Below, one piece after another: positions 2,668 through 63,418 of a stretch of DNA of 64,000 bases. Every line of letters starts with the position of its first letter. Position 1 is the first letter of the stretch. The notes under the pieces were generated by a model. The model was not told the DNA's origin. It did no database searches and saw only the letters and a list, made by a program, of their open reading frames with translations. The position numbers were made by a program, and so were the translations under genes. Origin of the DNA: Octopus vulgaris (Eukaryota); NCBI GenBank assembly GCA_951406725.2, contig OX597836.1, positions 23,622,001 through 23,686,000 on the forward strand, in the 5' to 3' direction.

Positions 2668-3056
2668 GAGTGGAGGCGCAATGGCCCAGTGGTTAGGGCA
2701 GCGGACTCGCGGTCATAGGATCGCGGTTTCGATTCCCAGACCGGGCATTGTGAGTGTTTATTGAGCGAAAACACCTAAAGCTCCACGAGGCTCCGGCAGG
2801 GGATGGTGGTGATCCCTGCTGTGCTCTTTCACCACAACTTTCTCTCACTCTTACTTCCTGTTTCTGTTGTACCTGTATTTCAAAGGGCCGGCCTTGTCAC
2901 TCTCTGTGTCACGCTGAATATCCCCGAGAACTACGTTAAGGGTACACGTGTCTGTGGAGTGCTCAGCCACTTACACGTTAATTTCACGAGCAGGCTGTTC
3001 CGTTGATTCGGATCAACCGGAACCCTCATCGTCGTAACCGACGGAGTGCTTCCACC
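2668..3056 (+). mobile_element. tRNA-derived SINE family B (resembles octopus OR-type SINEs)
   Basis: A box tggcccagtgg, B box ggtttcgattcc; TSD acactcacacttgt at 2654-2667 and 3057-3070; near-identical copies elsewhere. Confidence 0.92.
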
Positions 3057-4539: not shown

Positions 4540-4930
4540 ATATAATTAATTAATAAATAAAACATATGCATATATACATACATATATGTACGTACCTACC
4601 TCTACATGTATATATACATACATATATGGGTACAGGACACCAAAAAACGTCGACCACAATGAGAAACGAAAACATAAACACAAAACCAAGGAACTGGACA
4701 TTTTTCTTAAACAACAACAAAAAATAGAGTACAGGACATACAGAACAAGGAAAATTCCCCTTCTTCAGTTGCCTCTGTTTCAGCTACTCGTGGCGTAGAT
4801 GAAACAAAGGCGACTGTCGACGTTTTCTTGGTGTCCTGTACCCATATATGCATGTATATATACATGTAGAGGTAGGTACGTACATATATGTATGTATGTA
4901 TGCATATGTTTTATTTATTTATTAATTTAT
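4540..4930. mobile_element. Penelope-like pseudo-LTR fragment with inverted duplication
   Basis: Same family as 8010-8900 and 37215-37820; arms about 4543-4653 and 4816-4928 are reverse complements. Confidence 0.7.
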
Positions 4931-4953
4931 GTATATATATATATATACATAAG

Positions 4954-5300
4954 GGAGGCGCAATGGCCCAGTGGTTAGGGCAGCGGACTCGCGGTCATAG
5001 GATCGCGGTTTCGATTCCCAGACCGGGCGTTGTGAGTGTTTATTGAGCGAAAACACCTAAAAGCTCCACGAGGCTCCGGCAGGGGATGGTGGTGATCCCT
5101 GCTGTACTTTTTCACCACAACTTTCTCTCACTCTTACTTCCTGTTTCTGTTGTACCTGTATTTCAAAGGGCCGAGAACTACGTTAAGGGTGCACGTGTCT
5201 GTGGAGTGCTCAGCCACTTACACGTTAATTTCACGAGCAGGCTGTTCCGTTGATTCGGATCAACCGGAACTCTCATCATCGTAACCGACGGAGTGCTTCC
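4954..5300 (+). mobile_element. SINE family B copy with internal deletion
   Basis: Near-identical to 2668-3056 but lacks about 35 bp between aagggccg and agaactac. Confidence 0.92.
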
Positions 5301-5329
5301 AATATATATATATATATACGTTGCATATC

Positions 5330-8011: not shown

Positions 8012-8230
8012 ATAAATTAATAAATAAATAAAACATATGCATATATACATACATATATGTACGTACCTACCTCTACATGTATATATACATGCATATATGG
8101 GTACAGGACACCAAAAAAAAAAACGTCGAACACAATGTGAAACGAAAACATAAACATGAAACCAAGGAAATGGACATTTTTTTAAAACAACGAAAAAATA
8201 GAGTACAGGATATACAAAACAAGGAAAATT

Positions 8231-8306
8231 CCCCTTCTTCAGTCGCCTTAATTTCATCTACTCCACGTTTCGAAGGTCAAGGCGATACATGACTTCAATG
8301 AAAATT
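8231..8306 (-). ncRNA. Rearranged (non-circularly permuted) hammerhead-like motif, core intact
   Basis: rc: UCAUGU-A-UCGCCUU-GA-CCUUC-GAA-ACGUGG-...-AAGGCGA-CUGAAGA-AGGGG. Confidence 0.7.
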
Positions 8307-8732
8307 TCCTTCCCTCGAAAATCAAATTAAATAAAATTTGAGATTTTTTTGCGGAGGGGTAAAAATGGTAACAAAAACAGGACAGTAACGACAGTACAAA
8401 TTATAAACAGTAAAAGACAGGATACGGAGAATAACAGTAACACAAACAAGAAGGGCTGTTAAGCCAAACGAGATAAACAATTTTACGAACGCTATTGTTT
8501 GAGAACGGCAGAGAGCAACAGATATTACCGTCTCTACTTGAAGGAAGCCAGGAGAAGAAAGACAGAAATAGCCATCTCATCACGTGACCGCGACGGGAAA
8601 TAGATGGAATGCCTGGTGTGTGTCTTGTAGCTACCCGCCTAAAAAAATATGAGGAATGGGCCTGGGAATATATATAAAAAAGAAAAGATATTTGATTAAT
8701 GAAAAAGATGGAAAATAGGAGAAAGTTTATTG

Positions 8733-8838
8733 ATCACTACAATTGTTTCGACTCATCTATCATCGATCCCTCATAGGTGGGATATTGTGCAACTGGTTTT
8801 GGAGTATCTGTCGGTGTATATGTGTCTCTTCAGGTGAT
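8733..8838 (-). ncRNA. Type I hammerhead motif with long loop II
   Basis: rc: AUCAC-CUGAAGA-GAC...GUC-GAAA-CAAUUG-UA-GUGAU; all core nucleotides present. Confidence 0.75.
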
Positions 8839-9660
8839 TACGAGATGTATCTCGTTAAATAACCTCTGTTCCGCAAGTTTTCTTCTCGGTATGCGTATAC
8901 AAAAGCAGCAAATTAAGTGATACAACTTCATTATTATAGAAGATCAATAAAAATCAGTTACAAAAAGATCTGATCTTTGCGTCGGATGCAAAAAGAAATA
9001 AAATACACACAACATCGGAAAAAGTATTAGATGTAATCGTTAGCAGATATAGATACAAAAACGCCCTCTCTTAGGTTGTATGACGCACATACACTCGCGA
9101 TGCAATTTCAGCTGGAGGAATAGGTCGATGTAATGGACTCCAGCACACAACTGGTATTTAGTTGACCGATTCCTAAAAGTATTTTGCCCGGAGTGCCAAC
9201 GATTTCACCGGCTCGCAGCCTTAAATGTGTATGCTAAATATTCACGAATAGAAAAGATGTCTTCATACTCCAAATATGCGCCACCCAAATTGCGTTTGAT
9301 ATTACTGTTTTCATTTACGATATAATTGCGGGAAAGAAAATTTCGATTATATTTAGTATTGAGAAAACTTCTTTTATATTTGAGACGTTTGTGATCGTGT
9401 AGACGAAAATTAAATGTTAGAGTAGCTATGAATGGTAAATCTGGAAAAGCAGGCGGACCTAAGACAATCCTACAGGATTGTAAAACTAATAGGAATGTAA
9501 CGAACATTAAAATACTTGTAGCAAAAGAGAAAAAGGGAAAACAAACAAGTAAATAAATAGATAAATAAATGAATAAAGAAATAAAGTGAATTTGGTGGAC
9601 GAAAAACCGTTGAACACGCAAACATATATACACACACATACAGCCATTACATACATACGT

Positions 9661-11042: not shown

Positions 11043-11128
<86 letters not shown>

Positions 11129-11133
<5 letters not shown>

Positions 11134-11188
11134 AAGATTAATCAGCCGAAATTGCTACGATGATCCGGTTCTTGACTGAAGATTGAGG
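11129..11188 (+). ncRNA. 5'-truncated rearranged hammerhead-like motif in a PLE-type fragment
   Basis: AUC-UCAAGA...CC-GAAA-UUGC...UCUUGA-CUGAAGA; stem I perfect 6 bp. Confidence 0.55.
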
Positions 11189-11308
11189 GCTTCGAATGTC
11201 CCGTCCGTGTTTTTTGTGTCGTCTTCTAAGTGTTTTGCGTTCTTGTCCCAGTTTGTATTTTTCTACATATAATAATAATATATATATATGTATATGTATA
11301 CGTATACG

Positions 11309-12041: not shown

Positions 12042-12404
12042 GATGACGAGGGTTCCGGTTGATCCGAATCAACGGAACAGCCTGCTCGTGAAATTAACGT
12101 GTAAGTGGCTGAGCACTCCACAGACACGTGCACCTTTAACGTAGTTCTCGGGGATATTCAGCGTGACACAGAGAGTGACAAGGCCGGCCCCTTGAAATAC
12201 AGGTACAACAGAAACAGGAAGTAAGAGTGAGAGAAAGTTGTGGTGAAAGAGTACATCAGGGATCACCACCATCCCCTGCCGGAGCCTCGTGGAGCTTTTA
12301 GGTGTTTTCGCTCAATAAACACTCACAACGCCCGGTCTGGGAATCGAAACCACGATCCTATGACCGAGAGTCCACTGTCCTAACCACTAGGCCATTGCGC
12401 CTCC
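12042..12404 (-). mobile_element. SINE family B copy
   Basis: Reverse complement of 2668-3056. Confidence 0.92.
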
Positions 12405-12759
12405 ACAATACTGAAGTAGCCTACTTATGAACCATCTAATGCATTTCTTGTTCTCCAATATTGTTGTTACCTTCTGCGGGTCAAATAACTTACCTGTGAA
12501 TGCTCGCAGTAGGATTGTGCATCATTTTGATTACGTTGCTGTCTCCTGTGATGCATTGTGACACTTTGTGGAGGAGCTGTATGTAACTTCCAATATTCCT
12601 TTCTTCTGTGTAAGAAATACATTTATGGTGTTGAATGTCACGGTTGGTTGTATTAAGTATTCTCTGGTAGTTCTGGTAATAAGGGAGGCGGTGGATTCGG
12701 TGGGTGGTACCTGAAGTCTGTTGTGAAGCCATGTCTAAAGGATTCTACTAGAATTGGAA

Positions 12760-12927
12760 TAGTCGTGTAACAATATCTGAAGATTGATTGGAAGATATGA
12801 TTAGTCGTGTAACAATATCTGAAGATTGATAGGAAGATATGATTAGTCGTGTAACAATATCTGAAGATTGATTGGAAGATATGATTAGTCGTGTAACAAT
12901 ATCTGAAGATTGATAGGAAGATATGAT
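12760..12927. repeat. 42-bp tandem repeat x4 (ABAB)
   Basis: Unit tagtcgtgtaacaatatctgaagattgat(t/a)ggaagatatgat. Confidence 0.95.
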
Positions 12928-13888
12928 TTTGCTGCCATCGTGGTATGAGACTGCCTGTATGTTTTGGGAAGTTGTGGGGTGGTTTGTTTATATATTTATA
13001 AGTTAAATAAAGTAGATGGGAGGACTGGTCAACCCTGCCAGCGTTATTTTTCTCCCCTTTTAAAATGGTGGTGAGTACTTTTTGTATTTGTGGAGAACAG
13101 GGAATGGAATCAAATGGTTTGTTGGTGTTGATGATGGTGACAATGATACATATGCAAGAATTTGGCCGTTGAGGCTATCGATTCCTTTTAGTTTCTTAAA
13201 TTGGGGAGAAATACGGTGGTTGAGTTTAATGGTTTGAATACAAACGGGGGTTTAGAGAGAAGATGCAGGGATTAGCGAGCTCAAGGATTAGCATTTCTCG
13301 AATGTTCGACGAGGCTAGGCTGAGGTAGTTGATGATTGTGTGATGTTACTTGAGGCTTTTCTTCTTTTTATTTTGGTGTCAGTGCGCTTTAGAATTGGTG
13401 TCATTTGGTTCAACTTCCGGATTCTAGGAATTTGACAGTGTTGCTATTATTGCAGACGAATGCAGTGAATACTTCAGATTCTCTACTTGTCGTGCAAGTT
13501 GCATACTTTGTTATCAGTGAATGTGCGTGCGCACGCGCGTGTTTATGATGAAAGGGACGGTTAAAATTCCTGGTCAAGGTTGAAGGTGCACAGTTTTCGT
13601 TTTGTGTTCCTATCTGATTTGAGTGGACTTTTGTGGCTGATTGTGGAGAAATGCGTCGTAAGGTGTTTGCTTGGTGTTATTGCTTGGAGACGTCATTTGA
13701 AATCGTTATTGTCACGTGACCTACGATGTAAGCAATGTTGTTAATGGAAGTCATTATACTCTTTCTGCTATATTAATTTTAGTATTGCCATTTACGTTAG
13801 ATACATGTTTTTATCCAAGTTATCTATCTCTGTTTGTCCCTGTCTGTCTGTATGGATGTCTTCCCCCCTTTCTCTCTCTCTCTCTCAA

Positions 13889-20914: not shown

Positions 20915-23270
20915 GTGTGTGTGTGTGTGTGTGTGTATACGTTTGTGTGTCTGTCTTTGTCCCCCCAACATCGCTTGACAACCGATGCTGGTGTGTTTAC
21001 GTCCCCGTAACTTATCGGTTCGGCAAAAGAAAACGATAGAATAAGTACTAGGCTTACAAATAATAAGTCCTGGGGTCGATTTTCTCGACTAAAGGCGGTG
21101 CTCCAGCATGGCCGCAGTCAAATGACTGAAACAAGTAAAAGAGTAAGAGTAAAGAGTATATAACATCACCAGTGAAACACTCCTGACAAGTGTTATGAAA
21201 CTGCCGAGGTCACTGGTACAAAAAGCTAACGTTCTATGGGGAAATCTCACATCTCTGTTTTTAAAATGAACCCAAAAAGCAATAAACGCTCAGTTTAATA
21301 TATCAGATTGGCTGACAGTTGCACGGACAACTCTTATATCCAAGAACAAAGAGACCTGTGTGATGAAAAACTATAGGCCCATTAGCATGCTTGAATGTTA
21401 TGTAGAAACTGTATACGGGTTTTCGGAATATGTTTCTCCAATGACCTAAGCCAAACAAATGGTGTGATAACAGATGAACAGGCAGCACGAAAGAAATGGG
21501 TCTGGGGCTGTTCTGAACAGCTCCTCCTCAACAAAGCTGTTCTTTAGGAAGTCAAGCAACATCGCTGTAATCTCTTAACGATATGGCTAAACTACAAGAA
21601 GTCGTTCGACTTTGTGTCTCACTCATCGATGATAGAATCGCTACACGCTTCCAAAGTACCAGCTGCTATGGTGAATTCCATTGAAAAACTGACCACATCA
21701 TGGTCCCAACAATTAACTCTGAAACCTAGTAAAGCAACACCTATTGTTACAAACAGAATTACCTTATCAACAGGTATATTCTGGCTGATATTTTATCTGT
21801 AATGTTGTCTGTATTGTCAGTGTACCCCTTGCCAAAGCTAAATGCCGAAAGGAATAAAACTGATGTCACCCACACATTTTTTGTTGATGACCTAAAGTTA
21901 TATTCTGGTAATATGATCGACACCAAGAGACAATTGTAACTGGTCCCTAAAGGCTCACGAGATATAAGAATGGAGTTTGGGCAAGGTAAATGCTCATACA
22001 TGGTAATCAACCGAGGAAAGATTGTAAACCAGGCAGAGAACATGTATATCAAAGGCTTGTCTATCACCACTATCTCTAATGGTGAAAGCTACAGTTATCT
22101 CGGAATCTATGAGAATGTTTCATACGTTGGTGCTGTGACTAAAGCAAGAATAACAGAAGAGTACACCTTTAAACTCCGGAAAGTATTGTACTCAGAGCTG
22201 TCTGCACTTAAAAATACCATATCTCGATATTTTCGCAGTGCCGGTGCTAGTACCAACGTTTGGGATATTGCACTGGATACTCGATGAGATGATACGCAGC
22301 CTAGTCCTCAAAACCAGAAAGGTACTGGACACTACTGGCAGTTCCGTATTAACAGTGACAACGATAGAAGTTATATAAGACGATGTGATGGCGGTTGAAG
22401 CATAAGGTCTGTCCAAATAGCCTTTGAACGTCACAATGTGTCACTCAAACAACATCCGCTGAACAGTAAAGATAGAAATGAGTACATTCCATGCATACTC
22501 AAAAGTAAGAGCAATAGCATTTTCAGACTTGGAGAAGAACTATTGTGTAGTTAGGTACTCTGAGAATACAACTGTCTCATGTGACCCCCAAAAAGTCTAG
22601 ATTCGCCTACCTAAACAGAAAGTTGGAGAAGTAAGCATCATACCAGCAAAAAGCAATGTATTGGTACATATCCTGTAAACTGCATTGGCACGAAGAGTAG
22701 CCTCTTCTGGACCTGCGATAGATACATTACATCTCACCTAAAAGGAAATGCCTTCGCCATCCAGGAACAAGAAATAGCTACTAAATACCTGATATACAAG
22801 AGGGATAAAGATACCACTTAACTTCCACTTTCTGATAAAAAAAAAATGTCGGCTACACTTTACCAGTGTGAAAGACATCACTCACATCGTCAGCAGCTGC
22901 CCCAAAATGTCTACAAGATACTACCTGCCCCCGAAGCATGGCATAGTTGCAAAGACTATTTACAATGCTATCCACCGGAAGGACTGTCCTGGCGTATACC
23001 TCAAAGGCATGTCAGAACCGGCAGGTATTGACATCTTTAAGAGCAAGGAATAATGGTATTCACACCTTTAAAAACATCAATTCGGTGCAAACATAGCAAG
23101 CCTGATATTGTCCTGTAGAACAGGGAACAAAAGCCATGCACTGTTGCAGAGGTCAGCTGCCCAGTGGATGTGAATGTACCATTAAAAGTCCAGGAGAAAG
23201 CGGACATTTATGGTGTATTCATGAGTGACTTACACCTCTGGTACCCTGACTATAAACTCTCATATCTTAT
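19728..23270 (+). mobile_element. Decayed R4/Dong-type non-LTR retrotransposon (RT + CCHC + RLE), interrupted by SINE A
   Basis: Frameshifted motifs NYRP..CLN, WGCSEQLLLNKAV, WLNYKKSFDFVSH, FFVDDLKLY, MEFGQGKC, YSYLGI, DITHIVSSCPKM..RYYL..HGIVAK, SKPDIVL, EVSCP. Confidence 0.88.
20712..21157 (+). mobile_element. SINE family A, full length, nested in the R4-type element
   Basis: Head, body, internal (TA)n(TG)n and gagtaa-type tail. Confidence 0.93.
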
Positions 23271-27554: not shown

Positions 27555-27771
27555 TGTGTGTGTGTGTGTGTGTGTCCACCATTGCTTGATAACCGATGTT
27601 AGTGCGTTTACGTATCCGTAATTTAGCGGTTCGGCAAAAGAGACCGATAGAATAAGTACTAGGCTTACAAAGAATAAGTCCTGGATTCGATTTGTTCGAC
27701 TATAGGGCGGTGCTCCAGCATGGCTGCAGTCAAATGACTGAAACAAGTAGAAGAATAGAAGACTAAAAGAA
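27306..27771 (+). mobile_element. SINE family A, full length
   Basis: Matches 20712-21157; internal (TG)n expanded. Confidence 0.92.
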
Positions 27772-37214: not shown

Positions 37215-37955
37215 AGTGTAATAAATAGAATATATGCATACATACATACATATATGTACGTACCTACATCTACATGTATATATACATGCATATATAAATA
37301 TATATACGTGAGTACAGGACACCACAATTAGACGCAGAACTCAACGAGACGAAAACATTAAAACAAGCATGGAACGAACCTTTTTTTTACAAAGAAAAAA
37401 CAGAGTACTACACAAGGAAAAATCCCCTTCATCAACTGTCCCTAGTTCAACTCCAGCGTGTTTCGAAGGTGAGGACAGAACACGACTCGTCGAACTAGCC
37501 CTTCCTGCGAAGAAATTAAAGGAAATTACTTCGCAGAGGGGTAAAACAAGAAAAGAACAAAATGTGACACAAACAGGACGTAAAAACGATACAAATAAAA
37601 TTACAAAATAAAATACAAAATAAAATGCAAAATAAAAATACAATTACAAAAAAATACAATACAAGAAATAAAAACACACAAGAAAACAACCAAAGAGGGC
37701 CTTTTTTGCCTAGACGAGGAGAGATTCAAGGCGCGCAAGAAAACCGTGTGTTTACAGTTAGAAGGCCGCATGCAAAAGGAAGTATTTGGCCGGCTATGAG
37801 AGAGATGAGGAGGAGTGAGAGAGAGATAGTATTTCTTGTATTGTATTTTTTTGTAATTGTATTTTTATTTTGTATTTTATTTTGTATTTTATTTTGTAAT
37901 TTTATTTGTATCGTTTTTACGTCCTGTTTGTGTCACATTTTGTTCTTTCCTTGGA
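37215..37955 (-). mobile_element. PLE pseudo-LTR (family of 8010-8900) with inverted duplication
   Basis: Homologous to 8020-8420; IR arms 37547-37669 and 37830-37952. Confidence 0.72.
37424..37498 (-). ncRNA. Rearranged hammerhead-like motif
   Basis: rc: CUAGUUCGAC-gagu-CGUGU-U-CUGUCCU-CA-CCUUC-GAA-ACACG-cugga-GUUGAACUAG-GGACAG-UUGAUGA-AGGGG. Confidence 0.68.
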
Positions 37956-38185
37956 AAGAGAGCAATTAAAATAGAAATAATAACAAAACATGTTTCCCCA
38001 TTTTACTTTATATTTCAATATTTCGGGTAAAATTCCCTTTGTAAAGGAAAATGAAAAATAGTGAAACGGTTGTATAGATTTGGAGTAAGCACGCTGCGAC
38101 ATGCACAGAATAGTTTTATGACTACACCAAATCAAGTTCGTGCATTTCGTATCTATTGGAAGATAGTTATTAAAGAGTATAACCC

Positions 38186-38492
38186 TATCTATCTATCCGC
38201 TCAGTCGAAGTCGACTCTCGGTTACTCGATGGATCAGTGTCCTCCAGTCAGTTCTATCCTGGGTCGCTTCTTTCAGATTGGCTATGTCCATTCCGGTATC
38301 ACTCTTGATGGTGTCAAGCCAGCGGGTTCTTGGCCGGCCTCTTCCTCTCTTGCCACTGACCATTCCGAGCATGATGTCCTTCTCCAGGGATTTTCTCCGC
38401 ATAATATGACCAAAATATGCCAATCTATGCTTGGTGATCCTAGCTTCTAGCGACATTTTCGGCCTGATCTGCTTAAGAACTTCTCCATTGGT
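38186..38492 (-). mobile_element. Young 5'-truncated RTE (BovB-like) LINE
   Basis: Uninterrupted RLAYFGHIMRRKSLEKDIMLGMVSGKRGRGRPRTRWLD..DRTDWR; (TAGA) tail; TSD gtataaccc at 38177-38185 and 38493-38501. Confidence 0.93.
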
Positions 38493-38999
38493 GTATAACC
38501 CATTAATCTTGAAATGCCGTAAAGGTAACCTTGATAGTGAGCACGACGATCTGGGTGTTTCATTGCTGCAAAGGAAGTGTTTGTGTGGACATGTTAATTA
38601 ACGTGTGGTTTGCAGACAATACTTCCAGATTTATAGTAAAGTATTCGGCTCATTGTAAAATATACGGCTCTCAAGTATACATCCGTATAGCTGAAGAGAC
38701 AGTTGTCAAATGTTTGCTCGACATGTCTCAAAGGGGAACTTTGTCAGAGAAGAACCAAAGTGTACCACTTGTATGCTCAATGTCGCTCTGCGGATCGTTT
38801 GACTGATTACAACAGCACTTCGATTATTACAATAGCAGTTTGACTGATTACAATAGCAGTTCGATTATTCGAGTTTGATCTTTTAGGGAGCACAAAACGT
38901 TTCTGGTGGTTTGAACATTTTTCAGGCAGTAATTTGGAATGCTGGTTTTTGGTGAAGGACACTGGCTATGCATTTATGTATGTATGCTACTTATTTTGT

Positions 39000-44419: not shown

Positions 44420-45064
44420 TCTACTCTTCGTTCTTTCGTTTCCCCCCTCTCACATTTCCCTGCCTTCTCTTCTTGCTCACTTTCCCTCCTCTTTTCACTT
44501 CACTGTCTCCCTGTCATTTTTTTCTCACCCCTCCTTAATTCTTCTGTCCCTCTGCCTCTACTTCTATCTCTTCTCTCCCCACGTGACCGGTGTTCGGCCA
44601 AGCCTGATCTTTCTTTCTTTGTTCGGCCGTCATCCGTGCAACATCTATATTCCTCCCTGTACCTGTGATACCATATATCCCTGCCGTAAGGCTTTATTTC
44701 CATATACGCCAGCTTAATTTAATTCGTCCTTAGTCGAAAGACACCTGTTGTTATGTCCTGTTATTTATATTTGTGTAACATTCTCTGTTTTTTTTCGGTC
44801 CGTGCTTTCGTATACTTCGCTGCTTTCTTCCAAGGAATCTAATGCTCTTAGCTTAGTTTTTCCTTGGGGCTGGCCAGATTGGAACAATCTCGAGTATAAA
44901 CAGCTGAAATTGTAAAGATAATCTGGAACTCTACTGAGGAAAGAAAACTCTGAATGACACGTCCTTGTTTTCTTTGTATCGTATATCTGGGTGTTTTGTT
45001 GTCCCCTTTTCCCCTTTTTGTATCACCTAGCAGTCTAGATATTTTGCGTTCTTGTTCCATTTTG

Positions 45065-45065
<1 letters not shown>
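44420..45065 (+). mobile_element. Penelope-like pseudo-LTR fragment
   Basis: Pyrimidine-rich pLTR-like sequence between (TA)/(CA) tracts; contains rearranged hammerhead. Confidence 0.55.
44874..44943 (+). ncRNA. Rearranged hammerhead-like motif
   Basis: CCAGAUU-gga-ACAAU-C-UCGAGU...CU-GAA-AUUGU...AAUCUGG-a-ACUCUA-CUGAGGA. Confidence 0.65.
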
Positions 45066-45133
<68 letters not shown>

Positions 45134-45708: not shown

Positions 45709-47598
45709 TTGCTGCTATAGAGAAACGCACAAAGACATGGACAACAATTCTTAACCCTTACATATGAGAACAGAATAATTGTTTCTGATAGTATAGGCAT
45801 TTCAAAAGGAATATTCCAGGGAGATAGTCTTTCTGTACTTTTTAACATTTTGGCACTGAATCCATTATTATTCCAACTGCAGAAAACCAATGGCTACACG
45901 CTAGGATCTTCAACTGCTAGAAATATCAATGTAACTCATAATTTCTAAGTAGACGATCTCAAGATTTATGCTAAAAGTGTTAACAATGCCAAAAAACAAC
46001 TGGATTTAATAACATTTTCAGCTGATATAAGCATGGACTTTAGTCAAAAGAAATGTTCATATTTGGTTATAGAACGAGCAAAGTCAGTCCACCAAACTCA
46101 AAACCTGTGCATCAACGGTCTCTCTATCTCCCCCATTCCAGACAAAGAATGTTACAAATACCTTGGCATAGATGAAAATGTATAAAGTGAATAAAGATAG
46201 AGTGACCCGATAATGTTACACCATACTTAGGAAAATATGGCAGTCGGAACTCTCCTCTCACAACAAAACATTATCCCACAATGCATTTGCAGTACTAATG
46301 TTGATCCCAACATTTGGGATACTTATTGGTCTGTAGAGGAAATCCACTCCATAGATATCAAAACCCGCAAAATCCTGACAACTGGGAACTTCCACAGAAA
46401 CAGAGATGTTGACAGGCTCTACCTAAGAAGAAATGAAGGTGGTAGAGGTTTGAGATCGGGGCAGACGGTCTTCGAATGCCGTATGGTATCATTCAAGCTG
46501 CACCCAATGAACAACAGCAGCAAAAAGAAATATATTAATGCAGTACTGAAAAGTGAAGTGAGCAACATCGTAGGAGTAGGCAGTGAACTCCTCAAGAAAC
46601 ACTGCCTGATGATCTCTTATACAGCCCCAAAACAGCTGGACTCTCTTACCTCAGAGAAGACCTGGATGAAAAGCACTCAGCATACAAAAAAAAAAAAAAA
46701 AAAGACCATGCATAGGTATGTTGCTCGGAAGCTTGGAGAAGACAGTAGAATTGACACAAAGCGCAGCCTCTCTTGGACGCAAGACCACTACATCACATCA
46801 CACTTTGAAGGCTATGAGTTTGCAATCCAGGAATAGGGGATTGCCACAAAGTACCTGGTGAACAAGAGAGACAGTAACGCTCTTGCAATCCCAAGGTGCA
46901 ACCGCATATGTAGGCTATGTCATGTTTCTGTGGAAGACGTCACGCATGTGAATAACAGCTGTCCTAAAATGTCGTCACGGTACTACCACCTTATGCGGCC
47001 CGATGTTGTTGCTAAAACAATTTACAATGCCATCCGCAAAAAATACTGTCCTGAAATAAACTTAGAAAATCCCTCTGTTATGGAATACGTTCAAAAACGC
47101 CAACTCAAGGAATACTGGTGGAATATTCCCATCAAAACTTCTGTCAAAAGTAAACATAACAGGCGGGTTATTGTTGTTTGGGACAGAGGGGTATGTACCA
47201 TCTTAGTGGTTAGCTGCCCTGCAGATATAAATATCTCTTTGAAAATCAAAGAAAAAGAGGATATCTATGGACAACTGCTTCGAAACCTCCAGCTTCTATT
47301 TCCAGACCATGAATTCATATTCATACCAATAATAATTGGAGCACAAGGTTTTGTTAATAAATATTTAAAGGAGCATTTGGATTAACTGGGATTTTCAGAA
47401 AGAGAAATCGACCGGTTAACTCGTACATTACAAATGCATTCTATGAGTGGAACAGTAAAATATGCAAGACTTTTCTCAAGTTCCAAATGTGAATATGTCT
47501 GTGTTAACTACATCCCAAAGATGGAGCCTTGTATCTTTGTTTGAAAGCGACTCCCTCCTCAGTCGAAGATTTATGATAATTAAAAAATAGAAGAGACT
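45709..47598 (+). mobile_element. 5'-truncated R4/Dong-type non-LTR retrotransposon, decayed
   Basis: GIFQGDSLS, VDDLKIY, YKYLGI, RLYLRRNEGGRGL, CRLC..EDVTHV..SCPKM..R.DVVAK, KHNR.VIVVWD, VVSCP; both ends abut TACA/CA repeats. Confidence 0.92.
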
Positions 47599-62305: not shown

Positions 62306-63100
62306 CCGTCACTAGAAAAACTCTTATATATTTGCAAAGCAGCCTTGTCTTTCATCGCGACCTGGTGGTTACCGCCCGTTGATAAGGGACAATAATCCAG
62401 AAACTAGACCGTGCGTATCACTCAGGCTTGCGAGAAAAGGATTGCCTCCCTTTGCAAACACTTCAAGGGCACTGAAATGGTGTCTAAAGCAAGCTAGAGA
62501 CGATGATCTCCTGGGGCTATAGAGCTACAGTAACACCCCTCCCCTTTGTGGTTAGCCATATTAAAATGGCTTCTATACTTTACATTATCGAGCGGTTACT
62601 GTTTATATCTCATTCTGAGATTTAATAAAGTATACAGATATTTCTGAAGAAACAAGAGAAAGGGTTAGGGGAACAATGAAAAGATTGGTTACTAAGATAA
62701 TATAAGCAATGAGATAATGTGGAAGCCAGAGAGAGAGAGAGAGAGGGAGGAAGAAAGAGAGAGAATTATGAAGTAGACGTAATAATAGAGGAAATTGAAA
62801 GAGGGAAAGTGAAAGGTTAAACGCAGAGAAATGAGGTGTGTGGGAGACAAGTTAGAAGATTTAAATGAGGAGGAAGGAGGGTGTTCTGTAAGAATAGAGG
62901 GGTATAAAGAAGAGAAGATACTGATACAGGAAGCAGGAACAGTCGCGAAGGATGGGCGAGAAGGAGGGGAACCTTCTCGTTTTTAACCAAGACATAATCG
63001 TGCCTTCTCTTCCTCTTTTCTCCATTCTATAAATCGCCAATTAAAACATTGGCCAATTTATAAGAAAATGAAGAATTACTATACGTATGTATGTATGTGT

Positions 63101-63418
63101 GGAGGCGCAATTGCCTAGTGGTTAGGGCAGCAGACTCGCGGTCGCAGGATCGCGGTTTCGATTCCCAGACCGGGCGTTGTGAGTGTTTATTGAGCGAAAA
63201 CACCTAAAAGCTCCACTGTTCTCCGGCAGGGGATGGTGATCCCTGCTGTACTCTTTCACCACTCTTTCTCCCACTCTTTCTTCTGTTGGCCTGCTCGCTT
63301 AGCCAGCGGGATGGCGTCATTCGAAGGCTAAAACAATGCGAACGCATTGTGACCAGCGATGTGTAATGACATCTGATGGTCTGGTCGGTCACGTGATAGA
63401 CATCACGTGATCACGTGA
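63101..63418 (+). mobile_element. SINE family B head with an alternative 3' tail
   Basis: Head matches 2672-2850, then unrelated tail ending in cacgtgat repeats. Confidence 0.88.

Follow-up and report, generated by a model that had tools for sequence, protein, structure and literature searches.

A stretch of 64,000 nt of Octopus vulgaris DNA (contig OX597836.1; hereafter the window) probably contains, at positions 44824-44946, a rearranged hammerhead ribozyme: hammerhead core motifs in the order S-G-C, a stem II completed by a strand lying upstream, and a three-way junction between A9 and G10.1, set in what is likely the 3' end of a Naiad-type Penelope-like element (PLE), intact copies of which would cut after 44889. 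The RNA would run 5' to 3' in the order of the parts below, from one strand of P4 to the other, with the stem I strand and CUGANGA ahead of the second.

44824-44946 (+): whole predicted split-core, reverse-order hammerhead; 36 of 38 modelled pairs form
44824-44829 (+): P4 5' strand, pairing with 44941-44946, directly after A9; 6/6, A-U rich
44830-44867 (+): P5 hairpin (44830-44837 with 44860-44867), 8/8; ends directly before G10.1
44868-44873 (+): stem II 5' strand (10.1-10.6), displaced upstream; 5/6 with 44900-44905, 6/6 with majority letters
44874-44880 (+): interaction helix 5' strand, pairing with 44920-44926; 7/7, probability 0.99-1.0
44884-44895 (+): block S, comprising the stem III 16-strand, H17 (C44889) and the stem I 1-strand; from the motif descriptor and helix table
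44900-44913 (+): block G, comprising the stem II 11-strand, GAAA and the stem III 15-strand; from the descriptor, majority letters and helix table
44920-44926 (+): interaction helix 3' strand; from the helix table
44928-44940 (+): shortened block C, comprising the stem I 2-strand and CUGAGGA and lacking a stem II strand downstream
44941-44946 (+): P4 3' strand; from the helix table

Folding is predicted to start with the nested helices (P4, P5, the interaction helix and stem III); the pseudoknotted stems I and II would then dock the apical loop on the basal junction.

An abundant repeat and its hammerhead motifs

The core of this copy consists of UH (44888-44889), GAAA (44906-44909) and CUGAGGA (44934-44940), which gives the block order S-G-C (cut site, GAAA, CUGANGA) and, by analogy with other hammerheads, a predicted cut between 44889 and 44890. 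Stem III (44884-44888 with 44909-44913) forms 5/5 pairs and stem I (44890-44895 with 44928-44933) 5/6, or 6/6 with majority letters, while the interaction helix directly follows the 10-strand and has its 3' strand 1 nt before the stem I strand. The initial annotation had described a rearranged hammerhead with an AUC triplet at 44874-44943, and stem III, stem I with 5/6 pairs, CUGAGGA and an extra helix of 7/7 pairs were all found where it put them. Its reading of a rearranged hammerhead in a pLTR family is supported: the RNA resembles a hammerhead in S-G-C order and sits close to the 3' end of a probable Penelope-like repeat. Its interval encloses these motifs and misses 50 nt of the 5' part (44824-44873); the AUC triplet is not distinctive, since it also occurs in the published Naiad-2_Movir end.

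A descriptor as loose as the finding matched 2 sites in the window and none in 100 dinucleotide shuffles, and a looser one matched 3 (this copy, and 8242 and 37435 on the minus strand) against a mean of 0.04 in 100 shuffles. Rfam hammerhead models had no match at E≤10 in 44700-45065 or 8100-8950, as expected from the permuted block order; for the whole window, microsatellite matches were what appeared among the 150 of 372 Rfam matches listed.

The motifs lie in a repeat, family A, which has a diverged relative in the window:

44420-45068 (+): family A copy; 5'-truncated, high-copy repeat, putatively the 3' end or pLTR of a Naiad-like PLE, judged by its architecture
11130-11262 (+): family A relative; 5'-truncated, 70% identical; stem I 6/6, covarying at two pairs through double-sided changes

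Family A is a repeat of very high abundance, truncated at its 5' end: from three DNA runs bearing different organism codes, 13,270, 13,736 and 9,958 contigs matched the copy, mostly 90-99% alike, and loose contig ends continue upstream of it. Contig depth summed over the copy, which is not a measure of copy number, peaks at 44816-44990. The copy is flanked by (TA)n on one side and (CA)n(TA)n on the other. Insertion into a (TA)n microsatellite and 5' truncation are as in Naiad PLEs, and because some other PLEs share both they are not diagnostic. No ORF was seen within 44420-45068, so the assignment to Naiad is one of layout and target; by eye, the layout is identical to that of published Naiad 3' ends. 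No PLE domain was found by Pfam among the 150 of 189 filtered window frames scanned, which gave two weak, unrelated matches, and the three short motifs tried against the published Naiad consensus sequences returned no Naiad match.

The relative at 11130 emerges from (TA)n at 11127-11135, 1-3 nt upstream of the predicted cut, with C17 retained. As a single case, this start point would fit cleavage in vivo without demonstrating it.

A predicted upstream stem II and three-way junction, and a second family

Stem II had been noted as barely supported. Our comparison indicates that it had been misplaced rather than weak, and that 44868-44873 is a better 5' strand than the local one after CUGAGGA. 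In majority letters, the six bases before GAAA exactly complement 44868-44873, a strand that starts with G and directly precedes the interaction helix. The local stem II was rejected, having at most 2 pairs in this copy and at most 1 with the family majority letter; the majority C at 44905 breaks one local pair. The fold then predicted inserts two new helices, P4 and P5, at the A9/G10.1 step, which becomes a three-way junction. A9 and G10.1 are apart in sequence, but in the modelled fold they meet at the junction with no unpaired bases.

The majority letters come from the DNA-run contigs. Their best-supported 40 variant rows (299 others lie beyond these) include five in 44806-44950; all five differences sit in modelled helices, all improve the fold and none harms a helix. 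Those at 44884 and 44913 turn a stem III A-U pair into G-C by a double-sided change, that at 44932 restores stem I to 6/6, and those at 44900 and 44905 make stem II 6/6 with G10.1-C11.1. Stems I, II and III then enclose the core with 6/6, 6/6 and 5/5 complementary pairs. The window copy itself has a C-U mismatch at 1.2/2.2 and G-U at 10.1/11.1, and it is therefore likely decayed, and slowed or dead.

In thermodynamic folding, P5, the interaction helix and stem III had pairing probabilities of 0.84-1.0. P4 in the modelled register is 6/6, yet its pairing probability was about 0.1, and the minimum free energy (MFE) structure forms it in a shifted register; stems I and II are absent from the output because they are pseudoknots, which the program cannot form. 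The fold also describes a second sequence family in the window, family B:

8231-8359 (-): family B split fold; 35/37 pairs, P5 6/8; intact CUGAAGA core, GUA triplet
37424-37541 (-): family B split fold, second copy; 39/39 pairs; U at core position 3, GUU triplet

The two families had been described as unlike in primary sequence and alike in topology. Both parts held: no BLAST similarity between them was found among the matches listed, and the family B copies form nearly all or all of the pairs of the split fold. The MFE structure of the 37424 copy shows P4, P5, the interaction helix and stem III, and the 8231 copy, with its intact core, is the best natural candidate for a test within the window. 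MFE z-scores were -1.0 (unremarkable) for the initially annotated interval with flanks, -2.3 for the longer interval of the family A copy (5 of 200 shuffles as good), -2.4 for the 37424 copy and -0.95 for the 8231 copy. A MAFFT alignment of four copies did not register the blocks.

Shuffling the upstream 65 nt regained stem II, P4 and P5 together in 36 of 5000 trials for the family A copy and 52 of 5000 for the 37424 copy; the 8231 copy failed this test owing to its P5 of 6/8. A strict four-block scan matched 3 times in the window, with the 8231 copy in a different register; the controls were 200 shuffles, which had 19 matches, and 242 loci taken from pattern scans of metagenome and viral contigs, which had 1. 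None of these loci resembled family A or B by BLAST and the single one that passed (L054) did so weakly, with a score of 26 against 34-37, so the set served only as a control.

Several further features accompany family B. At 8733-8838 (-), 590 nt upstream of the split form at 8231 and on the same strand, lies a type-I PLE-like minimal hammerhead with a stem I of 5 pairs, CUGAAGA, a palindromic helix III, a GUA triplet and a 3-pair stem II enclosing a loop of roughly 70 nt; it has no Rfam match. At 4629-4950, a family B fold-back joins the minus-strand core and 3' end to an inverted piece; the breakpoint lies just past the stem III 15-strand, and the 3' end also occurs there in an inverted copy. 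On its 5' side, the 37424 copy shows by eye an inverted duplication (37560-37700 and 37840-37960), an arrangement typical of PLE insertions.

Published Naiad 3' ends and known hammerhead classes

Craig et al. 2021 (PMC8557442) describe Naiad PLEs as lacking canonical hammerheads and preferring (TA)n, record in some of them a whole or half core matching no descriptor ('HHR_core/half_core' notes), and list the Hydra and Penelope rows of the supplement as type I. We located the four CTGAnGA words, as exact matches, in the Craig consensus file (54 sequences) and judged the flanking sequence by eye; this search misses words broken across lines and variant cores, and names follow the next header and the order of the table, two sources that disagree in places. 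Twenty-five places, in at most 25 of the 54 sequences, were judged to be 3' non-coding ends: 11 had the split layout, 6 were type-CSG and 8 had cores that were not parsed. More than half of the 54 sequences, bivalves included, had no core by exact-word search. The split ends, all read by eye, were:

Beroe: stem I of only 2 pairs; upstream stem II GGCCCA/UGGGCC
Clytia Naiad-3: upstream stem II GGCC/GGCC
Acropora (three nearly identical ends): upstream stem II GGCUCC/GGAGCC
Morbakka Naiad-2: upstream stem II GGGGA/UCCCC
Pomphorhynchus: upstream stem II GGCCCC/GGGGCC
Crustacean record before Naiad_Ppla: upstream stem II GACGCC/GGCGUC
Octopus (two nearly identical ends): upstream stem II GACACC/GGUGUC
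Euprymna: degenerate

The corresponding pairs in the O. vulgaris window families are GGCUGG/CCAGCC and GAAGG/CCUUC. The 11 ends thus span a ctenophore, cnidarians, an acanthocephalan, a crustacean and cephalopods, and their letters differ throughout. In all of them, as read by eye, P4 lies 0-2 nt after A9 and P5 stops at G10.1 or close to it; except in the degenerate case, 4-6 Watson-Crick pairs make up stem II, which G10.1-C11.1 closes. The six nematode ends (PMC8557442 File S5) appeared by eye to be type-CSG with the same interaction helix and covarying stems, and the eight unparsed ones include two spider ends with a clear S-G-C order and an ambiguous stem II. Ends in the ostracod region of the same file also showed, by eye, an S-G-C-like order and an ambiguous stem II.

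Because the same layout is visible in published Naiads, elements reported to lack hammerheads likely cut their own RNA after all. A broader reading, which we favor slightly less firmly than the assignment of the window copy, is that active hammerheads of reversed cyclic order occur in Naiads across animals and derive from a single ancestral fold by several circular permutations, with type-CSG in nematodes and a split core, the seventh topology, in ctenophores, cnidarians, acanthocephalans, crustaceans and cephalopods; in the latter a three-way junction between A9 and G10.1 would interrupt the catalytic strand. The initial annotation had proposed that the architecture is old and common to PLE lineages. 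Its age agrees with the unrelated window families and, by eye, with Naiads from ctenophores to cephalopods, but its reach seems to be the Naiad clade, Hydra and Penelope elements being type I.

Eckert et al. 2023 (PMC10085705) found type-SGC (HRIMA-1) in metatranscriptomes only and type-CSG as two metagenomic sequences, measured cleavage of SGC and CSG RNAs in vitro at 0.004-0.19 per minute, and reported no such RNAs in the genomes of known organisms except one bacterial GCS candidate. Non-circular hammerheads had come almost exclusively from environmental sequences. The window form shares with type-SGC the S-G-C order, a short S-to-G linker, a full core and an interaction helix that links stems I and II at their distal ends. 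It differs in that block C is split, the stem II 10-strand and interaction strand stand at the 5' end, P4 and P5 are new at A9/G10.1, and its setting is a retroelement of an animal genome. Type-SGC has an intact block C, with a stem II strand 1-2 nt after CUGANGA; the family A copy lacks that strand, and we therefore do not file it as type-SGC. Eckert et al. assumed block C to be indivisible (PMC10085705), and the patterns given there required CUGAUGA(U)G followed directly by stem II, so they could not find the split form; a preprint (bioRxiv 10.64898/2026.07.22.740005) used type-I descriptors.

With type-CSG the window form has its cyclic strand order in common, but it is opened elsewhere on the cycle and has P4 and P5. 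The fold would be the SGC/CSG cycle in circularly permuted form, with its opening between A9 and G10.1 and P4 closing it. The opening would fall where PLE hammerheads already tolerate an extra base; a base between 9 and 10.1 is usual in them (PMC4209133). Type-I PLE hammerheads are likewise found near the PLE 3' end or pLTR and have G10.1-C11.1, but their insertion at 9/10.1 is one base rather than a two-helix junction, and they have the order C-G-S, a short palindromic helix III and no pseudoknotted core, none of which describes the window form. With Naiad PLEs (PMC8557442) the window form shares (TA)n targets, 5' truncation, inverted copies, the lack of a canonical hammerhead and the layout of 3'-end motifs; family A differs in having no ORF and letters that match no published consensus by the motifs tried. 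The literature searched, which left out most subscription papers, held no report of permuted hammerheads in PLEs or of a natural hammerhead whose A9 and G10.1 are separated by a helix junction, so that activity of the split core is an extrapolation.

If correct, this interpretation explains why Naiads seemed the sole large animal PLE clade without hammerheads, breaks the rule of an indivisible block C, adds one topology to Eckert's six and gives type-CSG the covariation it has lacked so far. Non-circularly permuted ribozymes would move from a few hundred environmental sequences to high-copy animal genomes, as abundant elements with thousands of copies. The SGC, CSG and split forms would be related by moving the ends around one cycle, something that tandem pLTRs or circular RNA can do, which offers a route by which permutations interconvert.

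Cleavage, alternative readings and remaining features of the window

If they behave as SGC and CSG RNAs do, intact copies would be cut after H17, a site some 180 nt short of the element's 3' end. A cut in the upstream pLTR of a partial tandem may set the 5' end of the RNA, or may release units from read-through or tandem transcripts.

The same pairings could instead be made with stems I and II in trans between two copies, the ribozyme working only as a dimer or with the element's protein; we regard this as possible, though clearly the less probable course. Docking in trans or with protein help is a serious variant: the nested interaction helix and stem III are connected through both strands, which forces a monomer to bend back, and in the Acropora ends these helices can make 10 and 12 pairs with one strand lacking any linker. 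A distance problem of this kind had been noted by Eckert for one strand (PMC10085705); metazoan PLE hammerheads act as dimers (PMC4209133) or, as in the Anolis case, need the PLE protein (PMC11167929). Against this, the three copies of families A and B in the window leave 3-6 unpaired nt per strand between the two helices, and single-unit SGC and CSG transcripts cleaved in vitro (PMC10085705). Docking in trans is a variant of the best explanation and not a rival to the fold.

It is unlikely, in our judgment, that the split fold is a conserved, hammerhead-derived structure that no longer cleaves and serves as a binding or priming signal for the Naiad RT/EN or as a 3'-end stabilizer. Mutants of the Anolis PLE hammerhead were unaffected in insertion in vitro, with no read ends at the site (PMC11167929), and many Naiads thrive with no visible core. 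RNA run X24 likewise showed no read-end pile-up and no depth dip at the predicted cut site (1,326 reads, both directions); this run appears unstranded, bears another organism label, was sampled to 6% and represents mostly decayed copies, and is uninformative on cleavage. The fold without cleavage accounts poorly for CUGANGA, GAAA, UH and G10.1-C11.1 all being kept from ctenophores to cephalopods while helix letters vary, which is the pattern that selection for catalysis gives.

A plain type-SGC ribozyme with a local stem II after CUGANGA, in which the upstream complementarity is incidental or an off-switch, is improbable: it is favored by the S-G-C order and interaction helix, which match HRIMA-1 (PMC10085705), and by a possible local stem II of 4 pairs in family B (two of them G-U), but the relative at 11130 has at most 1 contiguous local pair, family A does no better with its majority letter, and in the Naiad ends, read by eye, the bases after A9 pair in P4 and those before GAAA pair upstream. 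That short motifs came together by chance in a decayed repeat is very improbable, even though descriptor matches do arise by chance at about 0.04-0.1 per window: a single window has three full sites and one partial site, the majority letters improve the fold, and the 11 published 3' ends (by eye) keep the same order.

The split-core hammerhead aside, the window holds several other features. At 46231-47385 (+), with a related piece at 22684-22805, are two frames of 201 and 182 aa, the second without a Pfam match; we take them to resemble the end of a non-LTR element that carries the zinc knuckle and the restriction-like endonuclease. A 134-aa frame at 38193-38597 (-), also without a Pfam match, presumably resembles the C-terminus of a LINE ORF2. 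At 12757-12928 (+), a 42-nt unit is repeated in tandem four times with CTGAAGA in each, and no hammerhead fold was found there. Two dispersed SINE-like families, one at 2670-3054, 4954-5301, 12042-12406 and 63093-63287 and the other at 1225-1428, 20943-21153 and 27555-27767, have copies that are 80-96% identical.
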